Assembly (NCBI GenBank): GCA_035650735.1
Contig: DASRGZ010000170.1
Location: 1-36,336 of the forward strand
Length of the DNA: 36,336 nt
From: Chthonomonadaceae bacterium
Lineage (GTDB): Bacteria > Armatimonadota > Chthonomonadetes > Chthonomonadales > Chthonomonadaceae
Reading direction: 5' to 3'
Below are positions 9,975 through 36,335 of this stretch, piece by piece. The position numbers and the translations under genes were made by a program. The notes beneath the pieces were generated by a model. It did no database searches, was not told where the DNA came from, and saw nothing but the letters and a program-made list of their open reading frames with translations. How positions within the stretch are numbered: the stretch's first letter is position 1; each line of letters opens with the position of its first letter.

Positions 9975-10117
9975 TTTTTGCTTCCTCCGCGATTTAGCTG
10001 TCTTGCGCCCGGCAATAATGTCCTGCGAATAGTACGGAGCTGACATGCGCCCGCTTTTGAGTAGCGGAGGAAGAGTGAGTCTTCTCGTCAAACAACATGG
10101 ACAAGGAGACGAGGAGA

Positions 10118-10387
10118 ATGAAGCAGAAGCAGTTTAGCGACGAGCAGATCGTGGCTATCCTCTCGCAGGCAGAGAAGGGTGAGAAGCCCATCGTGGAGAT
10201 CTGCCGCGAACACGGGATCACGGAGAATACCTTCTCCCGCTGGCGCAATAAGTTCGGCAGCGTGGGCGTGAAAGAAGTCCAGAGGTTGCCGGAGTTGGAG
10301 AAGGAGAACGCGCGGCTCAAGAAGTTGCTGGCCGCGCGCGACTTAGAGATTGACGCCTGCAAGGAGTTGCTGGCCAAAAATTGGTAG
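10118..10387 (+). CDS. IS3-family transposase OrfA (HTH)
   Basis: MKQKQFSDEQIVAIL...EICREHGITENTFSRWRNKFG...ELEKENARLKKLLA; GAGGAG RBS. Confidence 0.88.
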   Translation: MKQKQFSDEQIVAILSQAEKGEKPIVEICREHGITENTFSRWRNKFGSVGVKEVQRLPELEKENARLKKLLAARDLEIDACKELLAKNW

Positions 10388-11283
10388 GCGCTCCCAAGCG
10401 GCGGGAAGGGGTACAGTTTCTGAGGCAGAGGAAGTTGTCGGAGCGGCGGGCATGTGCGCTGCTGCGCCTCTCCCCTTCCAGCCTGCGCTACCAGAGCCGT
10501 TCGCTGCAGCGTCCGAAGAACGCGGAGCTTGTGGAGCGCCTGAGAAAATTGGCTCATAGGAAAATGCGCGCGGGCTAGCGAAGCGCCTGGCAGAGGTTGC
10601 GGCGTGAGGGACACACGCTCAATCACAAACGCATCTACCGGCTGTGGAAACAGGAAGGTCTGTCTCAGAGAAAAGGGCACAAACGCCGCAAGAAGAGCCT
10701 GCTGCCGCAGGAGAAAGCGCCGCTGCGCGCCCCGCATCCAGGCCACGTCTGGACCTAGGACTTCGTCAGCGACAGTTGCCTGAATGGGAGAAAACTCCAA
10801 ATCCTCAATGGGGTGGACGCGTTCCCGCGCGAGTGTCTGGCGCTTCAGGTGGAAAGCCGACTGCCTGCCAGCAAAGTCAAAGCCGTGTTGGAGCGTTTGT
10901 TTCGGGAACACGGCGCACCCGAGTATCTCCGCAGTGACAACGGGCCGGAGTTCGTGGAGACGGCACTGCGACGCTAGCTCAAGCAGCAGGGCACGAACAC
11001 GGCTTCCCTCGAGAAAGGCCGACCATGGCAGAACGGGTATGTCGAGCGTTTCAATGGTCGGTTCCGAGACGAGTTTCTCAACCAGCAGGTGTTCCTCTCG
11101 CTCTTGGACGCGCAGGTTCGCATTGCCTGCTGGCGTAGAGAGTACACTGAGGGGCGGCCGCACAGCAGGCTGAGGTATCGAACGCCGCTGGAGTTCAAGA
11201 GAGAGGGGCAAGTCCACCTGCAGGACGGCCATTCAGGACAAATGGTACTGGTGTTTGCAGCAGACCGACCAGGCGAAGACTAA
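10381..11283 (+). pseudogene. IS3-family transposase OrfB (rve/DDE) with three in-frame TAG stops
   Basis: One frame reads SERRAC, NHKRIYRLWKQEGL, HVWT*DF, RSDNGPEF, PWQNGYVERFNGRFRDEFLN, RPHS; TAG at 10576, 10756 and 10975. Confidence 0.92.
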
Positions 11284-11317
11284 CTCGACTTTCGCTCCTC
11301 AATACGGGGGCAGGTCA

Positions 11318-12108
11318 GTCTGGGGGCGATAGGGACGGCACAGGCGCGGCCCCCAGCCCCAGTAGCGGGCGAAATCGGCAAAGGTGGGGGTCAGGCGCAC
11401 TTCGCCGCGTCCATCCACGCCTTCGGTAAGCGTCTTGAGGACGACGGTTTGGGGGTTGGCATACAGGCTCTCTTGTGGCACGCCGCCCAAGGGCTCGCAA
11501 GCCGCTTCGGGCAGACGCACAAAGGAGGGCCGTTTCTGGTCGGTAGCGATGTCCCAGACCATCGCCCGACTGTGTCCGCGCCTCATGACAAAGCCATAGA
11601 GTTTCTGGCGCGTTCCGTCCTCCTGCACGATCTCGCCCAGAGCGGCCCAGTCCACCTGGGCCTGCTGCCCCGGCGCAGTCTCAAAACGGCGCACGGCGAC
11701 CCAAGGGCATGGTTTCGCAGGGGCTCTGGAGAAACTGGCCCAGGCTCGTATAGCCGCCGGTGTAGCCGCGCTCTTTCAACGCGCGCAGCCGCACGGACGC
11801 ATTCCACACGCCTGCCGCCATACGCTCCTGAAGGTGGGGCTTGTAGGCATCGAGCCGGCTGGGACGCGGTTGGCGCGGGCCCCATAGCGTGGGGGCTGCG
11901 GGTTGTCCAGGTACTTGCAAATGGTCTTAGGATCGTATCCGGTCAGCGTGTGAATGTCGCTGAGGGAAAGCCCCTGGCGTTGGAGTTCGCGGATGTCGTG
12001 CACGTCTTTTCCTCGGAGCACAGGAGCCACCTCTTCTCACATGAAGTTGATGGCCTGTATTATGCTCGGTCGTGGGAAGCTTACTCCGCGATTTCAAGGA
12101 TTATGACA
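11318..12108 (-). mobile_element. istA: Truncated, frameshifted IS21-family element (5' part of istA)
   Basis: Across three frames: GLSLSDIHTLTGYDPKTICKYL, SRLDAYKPHLQERMAAGVWNA, RGYTGGY, RRFETAPGQQAQVDW, GGVPQE, CRPYRPQT, cut exactly at the IS3 right end. Left end placed tentatively at TGTCATAATCC (12108). Confidence 0.85.
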
Positions 12109-20915: not shown

Positions 20916-22166
20916 CTAATGTTTCCACAGGCCCCAGGTCAGGCTGAGAAGCTGGATCGAGCCAAGCATTAAGCTCGACCCAACCATGATCTGCAGCAGG
21001 CCCATGCACCAGATACGACGATAAAGACGCGCTCGCGCGGGCGCGCTGTGCAGATATTTCTCCAGCAGCTCCTCTCCCGCCGCAATGCCGCTGGCGATCT
21101 GGCGGTCGCTGGCCGGTTTGGTGGTGAAGCGCTCCTGCAAGAACGTGCCGAAGGTGCGCCAGGTGAACAGCGTAGCAAGCCCGGCAAAAACGAGAGCAAA
21201 ATCGCCCACGTAAGGGATAGATTCCAGGGCTTGCCAGAGACCTCCGAACAGCACGACGGCCCCGACCAGATTGGTGCCGCAGCGCGGGTGGGCGCGGGGC
21301 ATCCGACGGACGACCTCGGGCGCGAGCGTCTCTTCGCGCTCGATGGCGTGGACAGTCTGATGCTCGGCGGCATGGTAGCCCGCCAGGCCCGTTGCGCGCA
21401 GCAGCAGCAAGAAGAGCAACAGCACCAGCCCTTGCAGTCCGAGCGAGACCAGGCCCGGCACGAACTGGCCCGCTGGCGGCGTATCGGCCAGGTCAAACAT
21501 GGGCGTTCGGGGCAGGTGGGCGTAATGCTGTGCCAGCCAGATGCCGCCGCTGACCAGCTTATACGAGAGGAGCATCAAGAGGCCCATCAGCATGCCGGTG
21601 CCGACCAGCGCCAGGTTGCTCGCGCCGGCCTGGATGGTTCCGTTGGTCAGATAGACGCCAAAAGGCGTGGCCATGCCGCCAATGAGGGCCGGGCGGGGCA
21701 TGGGCTGATCGGAGAGCAGCAGGTCGCTGGCCCGCACGATGCCCAGGCAATACCCCTCAGAGTCGACCACCGGAACCAGGCTCATGCCGTGCCGGGCACA
21801 TACCTGGCCGATCTCGGCGGGCGACATATCCGCGTGCGCGACGGCCTCCGGCGGGCGCATCAGGGCGGATACCGGCTGTCGCAGTTGCGCCTCGCGCTCC
21901 GCCTGCGAGCGCGCCTCCAGGATCGGCAGCACGTCGGTCAGGGAGACCATGCCGCAGAGATAGCCTCGTTGCAGCACCGGCAGCGTAGAGACGGCCTCCT
22001 GGCGAGTCACCTGAAGAAAGCGCGCCAGGCTGTCCTCGGGCGCCAGCAGCGGCGCGGGCCGCAGGAGCGCGCGCAGCGGCAATATGAAAAGATCGGGGGT
22101 AGCAGCCATTCTGTTTCCCGGTAAAATCCCTGGCGCGACGGCTTCCTGGGGAGGCCGCCGCGCCAT
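20916..22166 (-). CDS. CBS-pair plus DUF1385 membrane protein
   Basis: Two CBS repeats (LPVL..YLCGMVSLTDV; VPVVDSEGYCLGIV..SDL), then IGGMATPFGV, YHAAEHQTVHAIE, HPRCGT, LQERFTTKP of DUF1385. Start ATG 22166 or 22109. Confidence 0.85.
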   Translation of the reverse strand: MARRPPQEAVAPGILPGNRMAATPDLFILPLRALLRPAPLLAPEDSLARFLQVTRQEAVSTLPVLQRGYLCGMVSLTDVLPILEARSQAEREAQLRQPVSALMRPPEAVAHADMSPAEIGQVCARHGMSLVPVVDSEGYCLGIVRASDLLLSDQPMPRPALIGGMATPFGVYLTNGTIQAGASNLALVGTGMLMGLLMLLSYKLVSGGIWLAQHYAHLPRTPMFDLADTPPAGQFVPGLVSLGLQGLVLLLFLLLLRATGLAGYHAAEHQTVHAIEREETLAPEVVRRMPRAHPRCGTNLVGAVVLFGGLWQALESIPYVGDFALVFAGLATLFTWRTFGTFLQERFTTKPASDRQIASGIAAGEELLEKYLHSAPARARLYRRIWCMGLLQIMVGSSLMLGSIQLLSLTWGLWKH

Positions 22167-22702: not shown

Positions 22703-23839
22703 ATGATGAACAGCATCCATGAACTGCTGGAAGTAGCGATACAAGCGAAAGCCTCCGATCTGGTGATCAAGGCCGGAACGGTGCCTATCATTCGGGTGGA
22801 CGGTCGCATGCAGGCCACCGATCTGCCGCCGCTCTCCCCGGAAGGCACGCGGGAACTGGCCTATGAGGTCATGTACAGCGCGAGCCGGGACGTGCTGCTG
22901 CAATATCCCAATTCGGAGGCGGCGGTCGGCGTGGATATGGAGGATGCCGAGGCCCGCATGAAGGAGTTGGAGCACAAGCAGGAATTGGACATGGTCTTTA
23001 CGATTCCTGGCCTGGCCCGCGTGCGGGCCAATCTGTTCTTGCAGCGCGCCACGATTGGGGCGGCGCTGCGCATTATCCCGCTGCATCCTTACACCGTGGA
23101 CGAGTTGGCGCTGCCGCCCATCCTTAAGAAGATGGCGCTGGAGCCGCAGGGCCTGATCATCCTTACCGGGCCAACCGGCAGCGGCAAGACGACCACCATG
23201 GCCGCCCTCATCGAGGAGATCAACCGTAACAAGCCGGCCAATATCTTCACCATTGAGGAGCCTATCGAGTACGTCTTCACGGACAAGAAGAGCGTCATTC
23301 ACCAGCGCGAGGTCGGACAGGATACCCAGTCGTTCGCGTCGGCGCTGCGCAGCGTGACGCGCCAGACCCCCGACGTCATCGCCATCGGCGAGCTGCGCGA
23401 TAGGGAGACGATGGATGTCGCCATGACCGCCGCCGAGATCGGCCACCTGGTCATTACCACCCTGCACACGACTTCCGCCTCCGCCACCGTGGACCGCATC
23501 GTCAACAGCTTCCCGCAGCATTTGAAGCAGCAGGTCTGCCAGCAGTTGAGCGCCTCCCTGCTGTGTGTGACCTCGCAGCGCCTGGTCCACCGGGCCAACG
23601 GCAGCGGACGCCTGCCTGCCGTGGAGGTGATGACCGCCTCGCCAACCGTCAAGAAGCTCCTGGACGATGGCGATACCGGCGACCTCTACGCCTGTATCCG
23701 GGACGGGGCGCACTTCGGCATGAATACAATGAACCAGGCGCTGGAGCGGCTCTATCAGGCCCGCATCATCACCTATGAGGAGGCGATCCAGTACGCGGGC
23801 AACCAGACGGAGCTGCGCCAGATGCTGCGCCGGCAGTGA
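22703..23839 (+). CDS. pilT: PilT/PilU-family type IV pilus ATPase
   Basis: ASDLVIKAG..PIIRVDG, GPTGSGKTTT (Walker A), TIEEPIEY, QREVGQDT, PDVIAIGELRD (Walker B), GHLVITTLHT, SQRL, GMNTMNQAL. Confidence 0.9.
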   Translation: MMNSIHELLEVAIQAKASDLVIKAGTVPIIRVDGRMQATDLPPLSPEGTRELAYEVMYSASRDVLLQYPNSEAAVGVDMEDAEARMKELEHKQELDMVFTIPGLARVRANLFLQRATIGAALRIIPLHPYTVDELALPPILKKMALEPQGLIILTGPTGSGKTTTMAALIEEINRNKPANIFTIEEPIEYVFTDKKSVIHQREVGQDTQSFASALRSVTRQTPDVIAIGELRDRETMDVAMTAAEIGHLVITTLHTTSASATVDRIVNSFPQHLKQQVCQQLSASLLCVTSQRLVHRANGSGRLPAVEVMTASPTVKKLLDDGDTGDLYACIRDGAHFGMNTMNQALERLYQARIITYEEAIQYAGNQTELRQMLRRQ

Positions 23840-23957
23840 CGACTTCCGCCTTGAAAGACGAAGCGGGGAAGCCCTCAATTAGAGGGAACTTTCCTCTTCC
23901 ATGAACAGACTTACGGGCGGCATACGCTATCACTCTGCTCATGGAGGAATCGAGACG

Positions 23958-24533
23958 ATGGCAGGAGAGAACATTCCCTGGCGGCATTCGCTGGAAGAGG
24001 CGCGTAATGAGGCCCGCCAGCAGAACAAGCTGGTGCTCATCGATCTGTTCAACCCCAATTGAGGGGGCTGCAAGACGATGGGTACCGTGACGTACCCCAA
24101 TCCCGAGGTGGAACGCTACATTCACCAGTATTTTGTTCCCGTCCAGTTCAATATCGTGGAACGGCCTGAGGTGATGGATCAGTTTAACTCCACCTGGACC
24201 CCCACGATTATCGTGCAAGATGCGGACGGGCGCGAACACCGCCGCGCGCAGGGCTACCTTGATCCGCAGCGGTTCCTGGGGGAGTTAGCGTTGGCGCGCG
24301 TCAAAGCGGCCATTGATCGGCATGACTACCAGGCCGCCCAGCAGCGCGCGCAGGAGGCTTTGGAAATGACGGAGGGCGATCCGGTACGCGAGCCGGAAGC
24401 GCTTTACTGGGCCTCGGTCGCCGACTACAAAGCCAGCAACGACGTCAACAAGCTGCTGCATGGATGGCGGGAACTGCTCAACGAGTTCCCGGAAAGCGAA
24501 TGGGCCAAGCGTGCCGAGTTCATCCGCGGCTAA
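23958..24533 (+). CDS. Thioredoxin-fold selenoprotein (UxxC) with C-terminal TPR-like helices, 191 aa with Sec35
   Basis: GGAGG RBS, ATG 23958, MAGENIPWRHSLEEARNEARQQNKLVLIDLFNPN-[TGA 24060-24062]-GGCKTM joins in frame the 151-aa ORF at 24078; WTPTII cis-Pro loop; PEALYW...EFPESEWAKRA. Confidence 0.9.
24063..24104 (+). promoter_or_regulatory. Bacterial SECIS-like hairpin
   Basis: GGGTAC (24080-24085) pairs with GTACCC (24092-24097); loop CGTGAC has G then U at positions 2-3 and starts 23 nt after the UGA. Confidence 0.7.
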
Positions 24534-24626
24534 GTTGCCGTGCCGCCAAAGTTGCGTAGAAACGACCTCTCGGAGAACTACCAATTTTGGTAGCGAACCG
24601 GCTTAGTGAACACAGCAGACGCAAAA

Positions 24627-24664
24627 GCGGGCGGTCCCGGAATCTTCCGGGACCGCTTGTTCTT
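24627..24664 (+). terminator. Intrinsic terminator after the selenoprotein gene
   Basis: GCGGTCCCGGAA/TTCCGGGACCGC inverted repeat followed by TTGTTCTT and preceded by AAAA. Confidence 0.75.
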
Positions 24665-24877
24665 GTCTGGGCAAGGGAACCACTCTGGCTCGATTAACTT
24701 CTGCCCTTTGCTTCTCTGTTGGGAGAAAATTCTCGACTCGCTCGTGCCGCTACCGAGGTCTGAGGAAGCTTCATGGCAGCCTCCCGAATCATTTCAAACT
24801 CAGTAACGTGCGGCGGCACGCCACCGTCTAAATGTCAGTAAACAGCCCAACACGACGGCCCGATAGAGGAGACCACC

Positions 24878-25474
24878 ATGAGAACAAAGTTCTTTCGGCT
24901 CGGTATAGTGCCGACATGCATCCTCCTGCTCTGCATTGCACTCCCTGCTTTTGCTCTCTGGGTGCAGATCCCCGTGACGGCCAACGGCATTTACGACGGC
25001 CAGCGCTTCACGATCAAGGTAACGGATCACGAGCAGTTCAAACAATTCCAGATCACCCTCGCCCCCGCCTCGAAGGAGGTCTCGCCGTTCCTGAATGGGA
25101 CGTTAAGCCTGATCGCCCAGGACCAATGGGTGGCCTCGGTCCCTGTGGCCGAGCATCGAGAAAAGGGGATCGTCACCTACACCTTTCGTGTCGTGCCGGG
25201 GGCGCTGGCGCAGTCCTCGTTTGAGATCAGCGCCAGCGCCTTTGCTCCTGCAAGGGGAGGCCCCAGCCCCTTTGGCACGGCGATGCTGGGCAAGCGGAAG
25301 GTGGAGCAGTTAATGGGAGGAACGATCTTTACGATCAAGTTGAGCGACTTCGCAACGCAGAAAAACCTGGGTTCTAACTGCCCCCTCTTCCCCGGTAAAG
25401 CCGGGAAGAAGGGCAGCGTGGCGGTCCAAGGTCGGGTGAGGACGAAACTTGCCTCCTCCCTCGCGTCGAAGTAG
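24878..25474 (+). CDS. Secreted hypothetical protein
   Basis: GAGGAG RBS; Sec signal ending PAFA; beta-rich mature region. Confidence 0.75.
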   Translation: MRTKFFRLGIVPTCILLLCIALPAFALWVQIPVTANGIYDGQRFTIKVTDHEQFKQFQITLAPASKEVSPFLNGTLSLIAQDQWVASVPVAEHREKGIVTYTFRVVPGALAQSSFEISASAFAPARGGPSPFGTAMLGKRKVEQLMGGTIFTIKLSDFATQKNLGSNCPLFPGKAGKKGSVAVQGRVRTKLASSLASK

Positions 25475-25820: not shown

Positions 25821-26315
25821 TCAGCGATAGTTGATAAACTCCACATCGTAGGGCAGGTTTTCCATGCTGCGCACCAACCGCTGCACGGCCTGCAGCGCGT
25901 CCTTCTCTTTGCTGGAGACACGCACTTGATCGCCCTGTAGCTGCGCCTGCGCCTTGATGCCCGACGCCTTGATCTGCTTGACGAGCGCCTTGGCCTCTTC
26001 GGTTGGAATGCCCTGGCGCAGAGTGACGACCTGGCGCACGGTGCCGTGCGCCGCCGGCTCAATCTTGCCGTATTGCAGGGCCTTGAGCGAGACGTTACGC
26101 TTGGCCAGCTTGCTGCGCAGGATATCCAGCACCATGTTCAGATGGAATTCATCGTCGGAGATAATCCGGATGGTATTGTCCTCCAACGCAAATGAGGTCT
26201 TGCTATTGCGGAAGTCGAAGCGGTTGGCGATCTCGCGCTCGGCCTGGTCCAGGGCGTTCTTAACCTCCGTCAGGTCCACTTTGGAGACGATATCGAACGA
26301 ATACTCCTGCGCCAT
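25821..26315 (-). CDS. yajQ: YajQ-family nucleotide/c-di-GMP-binding protein
   Basis: SFDIVSKVDLTEVKNALDQAEREIANRFDF, LRQGI, KAQAQLQGDQVRVS, DALQAV, FINYR. Confidence 0.96.
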   Translation of the reverse strand: MAQEYSFDIVSKVDLTEVKNALDQAEREIANRFDFRNSKTSFALEDNTIRIISDDEFHLNMVLDILRSKLAKRNVSLKALQYGKIEPAAHGTVRQVVTLRQGIPTEEAKALVKQIKASGIKAQAQLQGDQVRVSSKEKDALQAVQRLVRSMENLPYDVEFINYR

Positions 26316-27232
26316 CAGACCTTTTCTCCCAATTGCTCCTTGCAGCCGCGCAGCAGGCCATCCACGGCCAGCTTGAGCGAGGTCAGCGCGTCCTCGATCT
26401 GGCGCAGCTCGGTACGCGACAGGTTGGCCGGCTGGATGCCGGAGAGTGTGGGCAGGAAGTCGAGGATGCGCTGGGCGAGGGGCGACAGGCGCGCCGGCGC
26501 GCCGGCAACCTCGATGCTTTCCAGGAACTCCGCCGCCGGGTCGGCGCCCTGGAAAAACTTGACGAGATGGTCGGTGGGGCTCTCCAGGATCTCCTGGGCC
26601 TTGTCGGGCCGCTTCTTGAGGGCCTTGACCAGGTTGCCGGTGTCGTCGCTGGAGAGGCGCTCCTCGCGAATGCGCTCCACGACCGCCGATTGTAGCTCCG
26701 GCTCGTCGTTAAGCTGCTTGAGAAAGCGCGCGTGTTTTTCGGTGAGTTGGCCGTCGGCAGGGCGATTGGGGCTGGAGACAACGGCCTCGCCGATCTCTTC
26801 CGGCAGCGCCAGCAGGTCGAGCAGATAGCCTATGGTGCGCTCCGACAGGCCCAGGCGGCGGGCGACCTCGCGGTTGGTGGCGCCCAGCGCCTCCTTGACG
26901 TGCTGAATCGCCTTGGCTTTCTCAATCGGCTGCAGGTCTTCGCGCTGGAGGTTCTCGATAAGCTGCTCGGTCAGCCGCTCCTCGGCATCGAGCTCCTTGA
27001 CGATGCAGGGGATCGTGTCGAGATTGGCCATGAGGGCCGCGCGCCAGCGCCGTTCGCCGGTGATGATCTTGTAGCGGTTGACGTTATGCAGAGGCGTGAC
27101 GGTGATGGGATTGAGCATGCCATGCTGGCGGATGCTATCGGCCAGCCCGCGCAGACTCTCTTCGCTCTGGTGCTTGCGCGGCTGGTCGGGGTCTTCGACG
27201 ATCCGGTTGACTTCGATATGCTGGACGTTCAA
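26315..27232 (-). CDS. ParB/RepB/Spo0J-family protein with no adjacent parA
   Basis: DPDQPRK, LADSIRQHGMLNPITV, IITGERRWRAA, LIENLQREDL, HTH TNREVARRLGLSERTI. TTG 27232 follows GGAGG; TGA overlaps the yajQ ATG (TGATG). Confidence 0.9.
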   Translation of the reverse strand: MNVQHIEVNRIVEDPDQPRKHQSEESLRGLADSIRQHGMLNPITVTPLHNVNRYKIITGERRWRAALMANLDTIPCIVKELDAEERLTEQLIENLQREDLQPIEKAKAIQHVKEALGATNREVARRLGLSERTIGYLLDLLALPEEIGEAVVSSPNRPADGQLTEKHARFLKQLNDEPELQSAVVERIREERLSSDDTGNLVKALKKRPDKAQEILESPTDHLVKFFQGADPAAEFLESIEVAGAPARLSPLAQRILDFLPTLSGIQPANLSRTELRQIEDALTSLKLAVDGLLRGCKEQLGEKV

Positions 27233-27290
27233 AGCGGCAATGCCTCCATGAAGAAGTAGATAACACCTGTCTAGGCACGGGCGTCGGGCA

Positions 27291-27319
27291 ATTATAACAA
27301 AGCGAGGAAGATGTGTCAA
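27291..27319 (-). promoter_or_regulatory. Consensus sigma70 promoter with extended -10 for parB-like/yajQ
   Basis: TTGACA, 17-nt spacer ending TGT, TATAAT on the minus strand. Confidence 0.85.
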
Positions 27320-27386
27320 CACTCCCTGTCCATTCCGTGCGGCTAGGGCAGAGGCGGGCAGATCCGTTTTGCGACGGAATAGAATT

Positions 27387-32208: not shown

Positions 32209-33621
32209 TCAGGAAGCGGCGGCTTTTTGGTCCGCCCTGGCGCGCAACCGCGACTGGGCTTGCTGCCATTGAATACGCACCGCCTCCGGGGAAGTTCCGC
32301 CCTGGGAGCGGCGCGTGGTCACGCTGGAGCGGACGCCAAGAACGCTGAGCGCGGCGCAGACATCTTCGCCAAGCAGCGGCGAGAAGCCGGCCAGCGTCGG
32401 GCCATCCAGGGATTCCAGGGTGATACCTGATTGTATGCAGTGCCGGACGATACGCCCCACGACCTCATGCGCCTCCCGGAACGGCAGCCCGCGCCGTACC
32501 AGGTAATCGGCCAGGTCGGTGGCGGTGGAGAAGTCGCCGGTTGTGGCGGCAGCCATCCGGTCGGCACGGAAGCGGGCGGTGGCGAGGGTGCGTTGTAAGG
32601 CCGGAAGGACCAGCCGCAGCGTATCTACGGCGTCGAACAGGGGCTCTTTGTCCTCCTGCATATCTTTATTATAGGCTAATGGGAGCCCTTTCATCAGGGT
32701 CAAAATCGCCATGAGGTCGCCGTAGACCCGGCCCGTCTTGCCGCGCGCCAGCTCCGCCACGTCCGGGTTCTTCTTCTGGGGCATGATGCTGCTGCCCGTC
32801 GTCACCGAATCGTCGAGCGCGATAAAGCCGAACTCCGGGCTGTTCCAGAGGATGATCTCTTCGGCCAGGCGGGACAGGTGCATCATCAGGATGCTCGCCA
32901 CGGCCAGGAACTCGGCGATAAAGTCCCGGTCGGATACGGCATCTAGGCTGTTCTCCAGCACCTCCTCGAAGCCGAGTTCTGCGGCCACGCGCTTCCTGTC
33001 AATGGGGAAGCCGGTTCCGGCCAGCGCGCCCGCCCCCAGCGGCAGACGGTTGATGCGCTTGCGGGCGTCCGTCAGGCGCTCGCGGTCGCGGTCGAGCATC
33101 CAGAAATAGGCCAGCAGGTGATGCGCCAGCACAATCGGCTGGGCGTGCTGGAGGTGAGTGTAGCCGGGCAGGACGGTCTCCATCTCCCGGTCGGCCAGCG
33201 CCAGCAGCGTCTCCTGGAAGGCGGCGATCTCGGCGTCTAGGGCGTCGCACTCTTCCCGCAGGTAGAGGCGTACGTCCGTCGCCACCTGGTCGTTGCGGCT
33301 GCGGGCCGTGTGGAGCTTGCCTGCCACCGCGCCGATGCGCTCGCGCAGCAGGCCCTCCACGGCGGTATGCACGTCCTCGGCGTCGGCGGGCAGCTCCTCT
33401 GCGCCGCTCTCCAGGTCCTCCTGGAGCGCCCGCAACCCGGCCACGATCTGATCGGCCTCCTCCTGAGGGAGGATGCCGGTGGCACCCAGCATGGCGGCGT
33501 GGGCGAGGCTGCCCTGGATGTCGTGCCGCCACAGCCGCGCATCGAAGGTCAGTGAGTTGTTCAGGCGCTCAATGAGGGCGTCCGTCTGGCCCTCAAAGCG
33601 CCCGCCCCAGAGTTTGCGCAC
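32209..33621 (-). CDS. argH: Argininosuccinate lyase
   Basis: [57 protein letters not shown]. Confidence 0.98.
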
Positions 33622-33630
33622 GACGAACTC

Positions 33631-34851
33631 CTACTTCCCCTGGTGCTTGAGCATCCAGTACATGCGCGATTGCAGGCCGTGCGTCTTGACGATGCCCAGC
33701 GACTCGGACTGGTCGAAGGTCTTGCTGTCGAACGAGGCCAGGTCCTCGTTGTAGAGGGCATACGGGCTGCTGCGTCCGATGACGACGGCGCTGCCTTTAG
33801 CCAGCCGCAGCGTGACGGTGCCTGTGACGCGCTCCTGAATCTTGCCGATGAAGGCTTCCAGGTCTTCCTTGAGCGGGTCAAACCAGAGGCCCTTGTAGGC
33901 CAGCTCGCCCCACTCGCGGTCCACCAGCGCCTTGAACTTGAGCTCGCCCTGCGTGCAGACCAGCGCCTCCAGCGCCTTGTGCGCGGTCAGCAGCACGACG
34001 GCGGCGGGGCACTCGTAGTTCTCACGCACCTTCAGGCCCAGCATCCGGTCTTCCATGATGTCAATGCGGCCTACGCCGTTTTCGCCCGCGATTTTGTTCA
34101 ACTTTGTGACTAAATCCAGGCCAGAAAGCCGCTCACCGTCGAGCGCGGCGGGTGCGCCCTGCTCAAAGCCGATACGCAGAAGGCGCGGCGCGTCCGGGGC
34201 ATCCTGGAGGCTGCGCGTCCAGTGGAAGATCTCCTCTGGCGGCGCATAGTCCGGCTCCTCTAGGCGGCCCCCTTCAATGCTGCGGCCCCAAAGGTTCTCG
34301 TCAATGCTCCAGATCTTATCCTTGGTCTGCGGGATGGCGAGGCCGTGGGCGTTGGCGTAGTCGATCTCTTCGCTGCGCGTCCAGGGCTCGCGGCGTCCGT
34401 CGGGCAGCCTGCGGCCCTCGCGCATGGGCGCGACGATCTCGGCCTCCGGCATCAGCGTGCGGATGACGTACTCGATGCGGAACTGGTCGTTGCCTTTGCC
34501 GGTGCAGCCGTGCCCGAAGGCGTGCGCGCCCAGTTCCCGCGCCTTCTCGACGGCCTTGAGCGCGATCAGCGGGCGGGCGATGCTGGTGGAGATGGGATAG
34601 CCCTCGTAGTCGCCGTTGGCGCGGACGGCGGGCCAGCAGTAGTTTTCGACAAACTCGGTTTTGGCGTCTACCGTGTAGTGCTCCGTGCCGAGGCGCTTTG
34701 CGCGCTCCTCGGCCTCGCGGATGTCCTCGGCAGGCTGGCCGACATCCACGGTGACGGTGATGACGTGATCAAAGCCGTATTCTTCCCGCATTAGCGGGAT
34801 ACAGACGGAGGTATCCAGACCCCCGGAGTACACCAGAACAACTTTGCGCAT
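33631..34851 (-). CDS. argG: Argininosuccinate synthase
   Basis: YSGGLDTS, ARPLIA, HGCTGKGNDQFR, SIDENLWGRSIEGG, GVGRIDIMEDR, GRSSPYALY. Confidence 0.98.
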   Translation of the reverse strand: MRKVVLVYSGGLDTSVCIPLMREEYGFDHVITVTVDVGQPAEDIREAEERAKRLGTEHYTVDAKTEFVENYCWPAVRANGDYEGYPISTSIARPLIALKAVEKARELGAHAFGHGCTGKGNDQFRIEYVIRTLMPEAEIVAPMREGRRLPDGRREPWTRSEEIDYANAHGLAIPQTKDKIWSIDENLWGRSIEGGRLEEPDYAPPEEIFHWTRSLQDAPDAPRLLRIGFEQGAPAALDGERLSGLDLVTKLNKIAGENGVGRIDIMEDRMLGLKVRENYECPAAVVLLTAHKALEALVCTQGELKFKALVDREWGELAYKGLWFDPLKEDLEAFIGKIQERVTGTVTLRLAKGSAVVIGRSSPYALYNEDLASFDSKTFDQSESLGIVKTHGLQSRMYWMLKHQGK

Positions 34852-34903
34852 TCTCTCTTCCTTAAATGAGCGCGAACAGGCCCTTCTTGACCTAACTCCC
34901 GGC

Positions 34904-35028
34904 TCGGCAGGCTAAACCCTGCCGCTATGGGGCCTACGGCCCGCTGCCCACCTACGTGGGCAGAGAAAACACCCGGCTTCTCCTCCCTCCTCTCCCGCAG
35001 CGTGGGAGAGGGGTCGGGGGTGAGGGCT
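34904..35028. repeat. Composite REP-like element between argF and argG
   Basis: Stacked palindromes CGGCAGG/CCTGCCG, GGGCC/GGCCC and CTGCCCAC/GTGGGCAG, then CCTCTCCC-GCAGCGT-GGGAGAGG-GGTCGGGGGTGAGGG; same layout as the cluster at the window start. Confidence 0.75.
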
Positions 35029-35036
35029 ATTGCAGC

Positions 35037-36335
35037 TTATAATCCTAAAATCAGGGCGAGCAGGGCTTTCTGCGTGTGCAGGCGATTTTCGGCCTGATCG
35101 AGGATGGGCTTCTTGTATGCCTCCATTATGTCGTCGGCGATCTCCTCGCCCCGGTGCGCGGGCAGGCAGTGGAGGCAGATGGCATCCGGCTTGGCCTGGC
35201 GGACGAGCTCCATGTTGATCTGATAGGGCGCGAACACCTGCGCGCGCACCTGCTGCTCCTCCTCCTGGCCCATGCTGGCCCAGACATCGGTATAGAGGGC
35301 GTCGGCTCCCTGGGCCGCCTCCGCCGGGTCGGTGACGAGGGCGATCTGAGCGCCCGTCTCCTGTCCGATGCGCTGCGCCTCGGCAATATAAGCCGGGTCG
35401 GGCGCATAGCCCTGCGGACATGCCGCCGTTAAGTTTACCCCAACTTTGGCGCAGGCGAGCAAGAGGGCGTGCAAAACGTTGTTGCCGTCGCCGATATAGG
35501 CCAGTTTCAGGTTGTTGCCAAGCTCGCCTTTGTACTCCTGAAGGGTGAGGAGGTCGGCGAACGCCTGGCAGGGGTGCTCCCGGTCGCTGAGGGCGTTGAT
35601 GACGGGGATGGTAGCGTTGGCGGCCAACTGCTCGACGGTTTCATGCTTGAAGACCCGGGCGGCGATGGCGTCCACCCAGCGCGAGAGGGCGGCGGCGACA
35701 TCGGGGACGGCTTCGCGCGTGCCCAGGCCGACGTCGGTGGGGGCAAGGTAGATGGCGTGACCGCCGAGATGCGCCATGCCCGCCTCGAAGCTGACGCGCG
35801 TGCGCAGCGACGGCTTCTCGAACAGCATCGCCAGCGTGTGGGGATAAGAAAACTGATGTGTCAGAGACCGGCGCTCTTGATGCAGCAGTTTCATCGCCGC
35901 CGCGATGTCCAGAACGACGCGGAATTGCACCGGTGTGACATCAAACAGGCTGACGAGGGATCTCTTGCGCCACTGGGCGGAATCGGCGCGGATCTCACGA
36001 AGGCTGTTAAATTCTGCCAATCGAGCAGGATCGGCTGGCGCGCGCGTTACTTCACGGGATGCCACTTCGGGGTGCTCGGCCTGGATGGCCATGACCTCCT
36101 GGCGGGCACGCTCCAGATCCACGCCCAGCTTGGCCAGCACTCTCCCGGCCAACCCCTCGCCTTCCCGGATCAGACCCAGCAGCAGGTGCTCCGTGCCAAT
36201 GTAGTTGTTGGAAAGCTGACGGGCCTCATCGTAGGCCAGATCGATCACCCGCTTGGCCCGGGGCGTCAACTGCATGTCCTGGCCTAAGCGCCCGTCGCCT
36301 CGGGTGACCTGGCGCTCGATCTCGCTGCGGATGCG
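35037..36335 (-). CDS. argF: Ornithine carbamoyltransferase fused to an N-terminal Clp_N (ClpC-type repeat) domain; 5'-partial
   Basis: Frame open to the window edge: RIRSEIERQVTRGDGRLGQDMQLTPRAKRVIDLAYDEARQLSNNYIGTEHLLLGLIREGEG, then OTCase motifs FEKPSLRTRVSFE, PVINALS, HPCQ, GDGNN, YTDVWASMGQE, HCLPAHRG, QAENR. Confidence 0.93.
   Translation of the reverse strand, partial: RIRSEIERQVTRGDGRLGQDMQLTPRAKRVIDLAYDEARQLSNNYIGTEHLLLGLIREGEGLAGRVLAKLGVDLERARQEVMAIQAEHPEVASREVTRAPADPARLAEFNSLREIRADSAQWRKRSLVSLFDVTPVQFRVVLDIAAAMKLLHQERRSLTHQFSYPHTLAMLFEKPSLRTRVSFEAGMAHLGGHAIYLAPTDVGLGTREAVPDVAAALSRWVDAIAARVFKHETVEQLAANATIPVINALSDREHPCQAFADLLTLQEYKGELGNNLKLAYIGDGNNVLHALLLACAKVGVNLTAACPQGYAPDPAYIAEAQRIGQETGAQIALVTDPAEAAQGADALYTDVWASMGQEEEQQVRAQVFAPYQINMELVRQAKPDAICLHCLPAHRGEEIADDIMEAYKKPILDQAENRLHTQKALLALILGL

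Follow-up and report, generated by a model that had tools for sequence, protein, structure and literature searches.

A predicted selenoprotein with a thioredoxin fold, cut short in annotation at a UGA codon in its active site

In the window (the whole 36,336-nucleotide stretch of Chthonomonadaceae DNA analysed here), a table-11 scan of open reading frames finds only a 151-aa piece at the locus under study, starting at an internal ATG (24078..24080, plus strand), and the entry for the gene in the protein collection (P0002) is the same short form. Upstream of that ATG the frame continues to a TGA, and the question is whether this codon ends a short peptide or encodes selenocysteine (Sec). Read through the TGA, the coding sequence occupies 23958..24533 on the plus strand and gives a protein of 191 aa with Sec as residue 35 (U35), running from the ATG at 23958 to a TAA at 24531-24533, with a Shine-Dalgarno-like GGAGGA (23943..23948, plus strand) 9 nt 5' of the start. 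The TGA (24060..24062, plus strand) is codon 35, with 34 codons before it, in the context P-N-*-G-G-C-K, so read as the predicted Sec it gives a U-G-G-C active-site motif at residues 35-38 (24060..24071, plus strand), at the start of a helix spanning residues 36-45. Gene callers lose this active site because the UGA ‘stop’ lies at its first position, and the 151-aa product from the internal ATG (Met41 of the full protein) lacks it. An earlier note on this DNA had described the ribosome binding site, the ATG at 23958, the 34 codons, the TGA and the open frame downstream, and re-reading of the sequence bears this out.

The TGA is not an assembly error, since contigs from two studies (either of which is a possible source of the DNA) fully span a 701-nt stretch here with 0 differences, and 55 of 67 homologous sequences likewise have TGA as this codon. 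These come from a DNA-level set of 84 loci, in which 88 tblastn rows, 77 of them covering codon 35, gave 67 distinct sequences. Besides the 55 with TGA, nine have TGC or TGT, and CGC, TTG and AGA are each found once, the AGA locus with an apparent frameshift; neither TAA nor TAG occurs at codon 35 among the 67. Cys or TGA is therefore found in 64 of the 67 and another residue in three, in agreement with the earlier proposal that the TGA stands where the first Cys of a CxxC motif belongs, and the Cys at +3 is retained in all 55 TGA-type sequences. In one tandem pair (L057/L078, G306:C31:33523-34647) a U-G-G-C gene is directly followed by a paralogue without the first Cys or Sec, where a non-Cys residue stands at the site. 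A sample of 401 genomes across the phylum gave matches (E <= 1e-20) in 28, 22 with TGA, five with Cys and one with Leu; the TGA locus of genome G388 has further stops inside and may be broken.

The source genome (G000; 6.5 Mb, 97.6% complete), in which the window is contig C170, encodes the machinery that reading UGA as Sec would need. Searches for selA, selB, selD and tRNA-Sec found all four: selA (535.7 bits), selB (368.8) and selD (374.5) score above their curated cut-offs, and selD has a TGA within its own frame. For the tRNA-Sec the score is 71.7, where the gathering score is 47, and the anticodon is TCA (ARAGORN). The inference of the earlier note that the organism decodes Sec is thus supported by a full set of Sec genes. 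The tRNA-Sec gene follows the TGA-containing selD on one strand, ~1.5 kb downstream (C198:18925-21512), whereas selA and selB each lie on a contig other than this one.

Sec machinery also accompanies the TGA form elsewhere. Among 23 TGA-bearing genomes (22 from the phylum sample plus G019), selA is found in 23, selB in 21 and tRNA-Sec in 21, whereas in the five Cys-bearing genomes (86-94% complete) searches for selA, selB and tRNA-Sec found none of the three in any; these five belong to one genus, so the correlation rests on a single event. Cys-type loci from metagenomes have no genome attached for this comparison. One genome, G346, has the Sec machinery yet Leu at the codon-35 site; its related form has neither active-site residue. 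Among 61 related genomes searched, selA is present in 47 and a close orthologue of the gene in only two (G000 and G053), a patchy spread which could reflect transfer or loss.

For bacterial SECIS elements, the available text of PMC13188914 gives a consensus with a loop of 3-9 nt, a stem of 4-16 bp, a spacing of 16-37 nt, G in the first two loop positions and a minimum free energy (MFE) of at most -7.5. A predicted element of this kind lies at 24080..24097 (plus strand; -8.0 kcal/mol), with a 6-bp stem (GGGTAC/GTACCC, 24080-24085 and 24092-24097) and a 6-nt loop, CGTGAC (24086-24091), set at a spacing of 23 nt and with G at position 2 followed by U. Our own script places it within the consensus constraints, and the earlier reading of a CGUGAC-loop hairpin on the general bacterial SECIS model is in this respect sound. 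In a 60-nt window the single-sequence folding energy is not significant (z -0.10, 89 of 200 shuffles being as good), and when the peptide is recoded with synonymous codons, 3.5% of 5000 versions contain a model-fitting hairpin that is as good. In folding energy the hairpin by itself does not exceed chance; its weight comes from the comparison of homologues.

That comparison separates the two forms of the gene. Of the 54 Sec-type sequences, 47 have a model-fitting hairpin at <= -5 kcal/mol and seven are without a good one, versus no such hairpin in any of nine Cys-type sequences; among sequences at least 53% identical the counts are 33 of 34 and 0 of 4. In the 34 close Sec-type sequences the codons that form the hairpin are locked: Val44 is GTG in 34/34, Thr45 is ACG in 34/34 and Gly42 is GGT in 31/32, with GCC (25/25) and ACC (8/8) also fixed, while the usage of GTG, ACG and GGT in the genome is 0.34, 0.43 and 0.10. 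The flanking Gly36, Thr40 and Pro47 use all four of their codons in the same sequences. Pairing holds in 98.6% of 222 cells of an alignment (A3) of 37 Sec-type sequences, against 23-62% in slid controls, and in two of the six pairs both partners have changed (from G-C to A-U, in one and three sequences); these sequences were pre-selected for a V-T-Y motif and are related to one another, so the pair counts lean toward structure. Some of the compensatory changes alter amino acids. The predicted hairpin is conserved, codon-locked and compensated in Sec-type homologues and absent in Cys-type ones, as the model of a SECIS restricted to Sec-type genes would have it. By analogy with the pathway established in bacteria, SelB carrying Sec-tRNA would bind the hairpin, whose loop begins 23 nt downstream, and deliver Sec at the UGA. 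With its 18-nt hairpin, the clade offers a clean natural SECIS set that could be useful for testing the rules of SelB recognition.

Could the TGA nevertheless be a true stop? The gene would then be split or carry a nonsense mutation, with a peptide of 34 aa and a protein of 151 aa that has its own initiation at Met41, and the ATG at 24078 is indeed in frame, with a G-rich stretch ~10 nt upstream. Among the 120 closest homologues listed, 16 are full length and 104 are such short forms, whose first residue is the Met that follows the UGA position, so annotation does remove the active site, as had been anticipated. However, a short form is what a table-11 gene caller gives for any gene with an internal TGA, and Met41 is also usual in the full-length Cys forms. 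The stop is always TGA, never TAA or TAG, in 55 sequences across many lineages, Cys38 and the 34 upstream codons are conserved, intact Cys homologues exist, and the hairpin is retained only in TGA forms; a true stop is on these grounds very improbable. Still less credible is a reading of UGA as some other residue (Trp, Gly or Cys), whether by reassignment of the code or by leaky read-through. Nothing specific favours it, beyond the Trp that adjoins the active site in canonical thioredoxins, and against it the tRNA-Sec is the only tRNA found with a TCA anticodon, TGA serves as the stop of neighbouring genes under table 11 (the PilT-like gene with its end at 23839 is one), and Cys is the aligned residue in homologues. 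Judged from sequence comparison, the UGA at codon 35 is very likely decoded as selenocysteine, and the gene is a predicted selenoprotein, well supported as such and cut short in annotation.

The encoded protein is predicted to consist of a thioredoxin domain and a helical tail. Pfam, the structural model and structure matches agree on a thioredoxin fold of the DsbD-gamma/DUF255 type at ~residues 4-100 (23967..24257, plus strand). The best Pfam match is PF13098 (E 2.9e-12, 47.3 bits against a cut-off of 27), with PF13899, PF03190 and PF00085 also above their cut-offs; no NCBIfam model reaches its cut-off for this protein. In the structure predicted from a 123-sequence alignment, with Cys in place of Sec (pLDDT 97.6), the motif opens helix 36-45 of a thioredoxin fold, Pro82 precedes strand 83-87, and helices follow over residues 103-190. 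Pro82 lies in a W-T-P-T loop (residues 80-83; 24195..24206, plus strand), is present in 123/123 rows as the sole invariant column of the alignment, and occupies what we take to be the position of the thioredoxin cis-proline. The thioredoxin domain aligns with 2lst, 3f9u, 2ju5, 3ira and 1vrs at Z 15-17 (VIA-align), and the closest solved folds of residues 4-120 (1uc7, 1vrs, 3ira, 2ju5, 3f9u and 2lst) are those of DsbD gamma and of DUF255/Thioredox_DsbH, the N-terminal domain of YyaL/SSP411.

The helical bundle at residues 103-190 (24264..24527, plus strand) is TPR-like at the level of family profiles, which match TPR_6 in 40 and YbgF in 71 of 123 family members; the tail of this protein itself matches neither in Pfam or NCBIfam. 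When the tail was modelled in isolation, many of the top matches were TPR proteins, but weak ones (best E 0.14, best Z 7.9), with no Foldseek match at E <= 0.001 and none with Z >= 8. Of the thioredoxin-fold/TPR protein described in the earlier note, the thioredoxin fold stands on Pfam and the model, and the TPR part has support from family profiles but weak support from the structure search with the tail. A hydropathy scan for an export signal found no hydrophobic stretch (best 19-residue value 0.61), from which a cytoplasmic location is inferred. Unlike DsbD, the protein has no membrane domain and no export signal, has Sec at the first position and has an extra helical tail. A full DsbD was considered and rejected, as the match to NF001419 reaches 40.8 bits against a cut-off of 330 and covers the C-terminal domain only. 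Three other NCBIfam models with weak similarity in the thioredoxin domain, TsoB (NF045694), VPGUxxT (NF041383) and Trx7/PDZ (NF041199), differ in motif and architecture and fall far under their cut-offs (35.7/805, 24.6/275 and 12.7/300, respectively).

What might such a protein do? In the open literature searched, the family has catalogue entries but no experimental work was found. From thioredoxin chemistry, the Sec35 selenolate would attack a substrate disulfide, and Cys38 would resolve the mixed species to a selenenylsulfide, which a cellular reductant would recycle; the C-terminal TPR-like helices would bind a client or partner protein, the least certain step. By this analogy a cytoplasmic reductase with a partner-binding tail is the function we consider probable. 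Variation in the second active-site residue bears on the chemistry: the 16 full-length proteins among the 120 closest homologues listed comprise 13 with CGGS, two with CGGC and one with RGGS, the full-length Cys homologues being 53-63% identical. Since 13 of these 16 are without the resolving Cys, members of the family need not run a dithiol cycle, and the common CxxS forms suggest from sequence that some members use a one-residue mechanism. Five loci (L108, L112, L113, L125 and L127) and 13 listed proteins form a close C-G-G-S clade in which the resolving Cys and the hairpin are both lost.

The same variants could be read in favour of another function with the same decoding of Sec, namely a small CnoX-like chaperedoxin whose tail holds unfolding proteins, while mixed selenenylsulfides of Sec35 shield client cysteines under oxidative stress. 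CnoX/YbbN and this protein share an N-terminal thioredoxin domain followed by TPR-type helices, without an export signal, and the Foldseek matches include 3qdn and 3qou, both CnoX/YbbN structures; CxxS variants, which are unable to finish a dithiol cycle, are common, and a small group of loci adjoins a pirin gene (5/83) or an FMN reductase gene (3/83). However, the CnoX matches span the thioredoxin part only, with poor superposition of the whole chain (TM 0.39-0.40, rmsd >11 A, 13% identity), and the thioredoxin domain is of a different subtype, nearer to DsbD gamma and DUF255. CnoX has two five-helix TPR subdomains in the available text of PMC8129009, versus ~five short helices here. The full CnoX/YbbN architecture of ~285 aa was accordingly rejected for a protein of 191 aa with a much shorter tail of ~88 residues, and CnoX is absent from the selenoprotein families in the portions of the published tables available. 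A CnoX-like protector is for these reasons unlikely, and its more specific form, a minimal selenium-dependent chaperedoxin in which a short TPR-like tail on a Sec-thioredoxin holds clients, is more doubtful again. If the latter were true, it would be the first bacterial selenoprotein to couple holdase activity with redox protection, and the UxxC, CxxC and CxxS forms of this widespread, mostly truncated family would mark a switch from one role to the other, reductase or protector.

The protein has relatives in the literature. A 2006 paper (PMC1794560) lists a selenoprotein family named ‘thiol:disulfide interchange protein’ and gives three sequences for it, whose sources are Geobacter metallireducens, G. 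uraniireducens and Syntrophus aciditrophicus; two other papers describe the family as ‘predicted with high confidence’, with the representative WP_011366075.1 (PMC13188914, PMC9312934). The family has thus been listed in print since at least 2006 (PMC1794560), and the earlier note had stated that UxxC thioredoxin-like selenoproteins are known. Compared by eye, the three published sequences, as far as the source gives them, are of ~190 residues with no leader and have a thioredoxin domain and a helical tail, as here. Shared with them are the active site D-x-F-N-P-[G/N]-U-x-G-C-K-x-M and the motifs V-[T/A]-Y-P, W-T-P-[T/S], P-E-A-x-Y and a terminal P-x-S-x-W, and PF13098 is combined with a UxxC motif in both. 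The published active site reads F-N-P-[G/N]-U-I-G-C-K-x-M and the present one F-N-P-N-U-G-G-C-K-T-M, i.e. U-I-G-C there versus U-G-G-C here.

In BLAST searches, look-alikes of two of the published proteins, used as proxies and not themselves the published sequences, align at 34% identity over 184 aa (P0163, E 5e-40) and 35% over 150 aa (P0233, E 1e-32). A quick tree puts these look-alikes and the protein within a single family, on different branches that are each well supported. The published members are from Deltaproteobacteria, as far as the available text names them, whereas the closest named homologues among the matches listed here are Armatimonadota. Sequence similarity thus makes the gene very probably a distant member of the ‘thiol:disulfide interchange protein’ UxxC family. 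Taken whole, the explanation of a UGA-encoded Sec35 in a cytoplasmic thioredoxin-fold disulfide reductase that is a distant member of this published family is likely, with somewhat less confidence than its family assignment. What is new is the sub-branch and the lineage, the family itself having been catalogued since 2006; from three Deltaproteobacteria it extends to a scatter across the phylum, with the TGA form in 22 of 401 sampled genomes, in a lineage that has Armatimonadota as its named homologues. The main consequence is for annotation, as the 104 shortened proteins among the 120 closest homologues listed are named hypothetical or TPR proteins and lack the active site. No dedicated NCBIfam model is matched by any of the 123 family members, and annotation continues to truncate them for want of one.

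The source genome appears rich in selenoproteins. A scan of genome contigs with this single protein as query finds one locus only. A second, distant family member in the source genome (L079, C48:18710-19255) is 36% identical; its active site likewise has TGA (A-U-G-G-C), and its hairpin differs, the loop beginning 17 nt past the UGA. Two neighbouring thioredoxin-like genes (C64:39324-39653 and 40233-40553) have TGA at the first motif position, in the motifs W-U-G-W-C and W-U-G-F-C.

Gene neighbours point to no pathway, as none is conserved. The gene lies between a CBS/DUF1385 protein (20916-22166, minus strand) and a PilT-like ATPase (22703-23839, plus strand) on one side and, on the other, ORF198, of 198 aa and with no Pfam match (24878-25474, plus strand), a DUF520 protein (25821-26315, minus strand) and a ParB-like protein (26315-27322, minus strand). 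None of these five recurs at other family loci, 51 of the 84 loci reaching 3 kb, and the neighbours that do recur among 83 loci are lineage-limited and found at nine loci at most. A pirin gene adjoins L055, L085, L105, L106 and L120, in three of them together with a gene for an NADPH-dependent FMN reductase. A promoter scan found no site at the gene, and a terminator scan listed one site, inside the gene and at chance level. A strong inverted repeat seen by folding ~90 nt past the stop (24621..24666), absent from the terminator list, is a possible terminator.

Elsewhere in the window, insertion-sequence remnants at 10097-12030, apparently in pieces, include a transposase HTH ORF (10097-10387, plus strand) and an integrase-core fragment (11299-11694, minus strand). 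Three minus-strand ORFs at 32209-36275 presumably correspond to the arginine biosynthesis genes argH, argG and argF, which they resemble, and the argF-like one opens with a segment like the N-terminal part of Clp.
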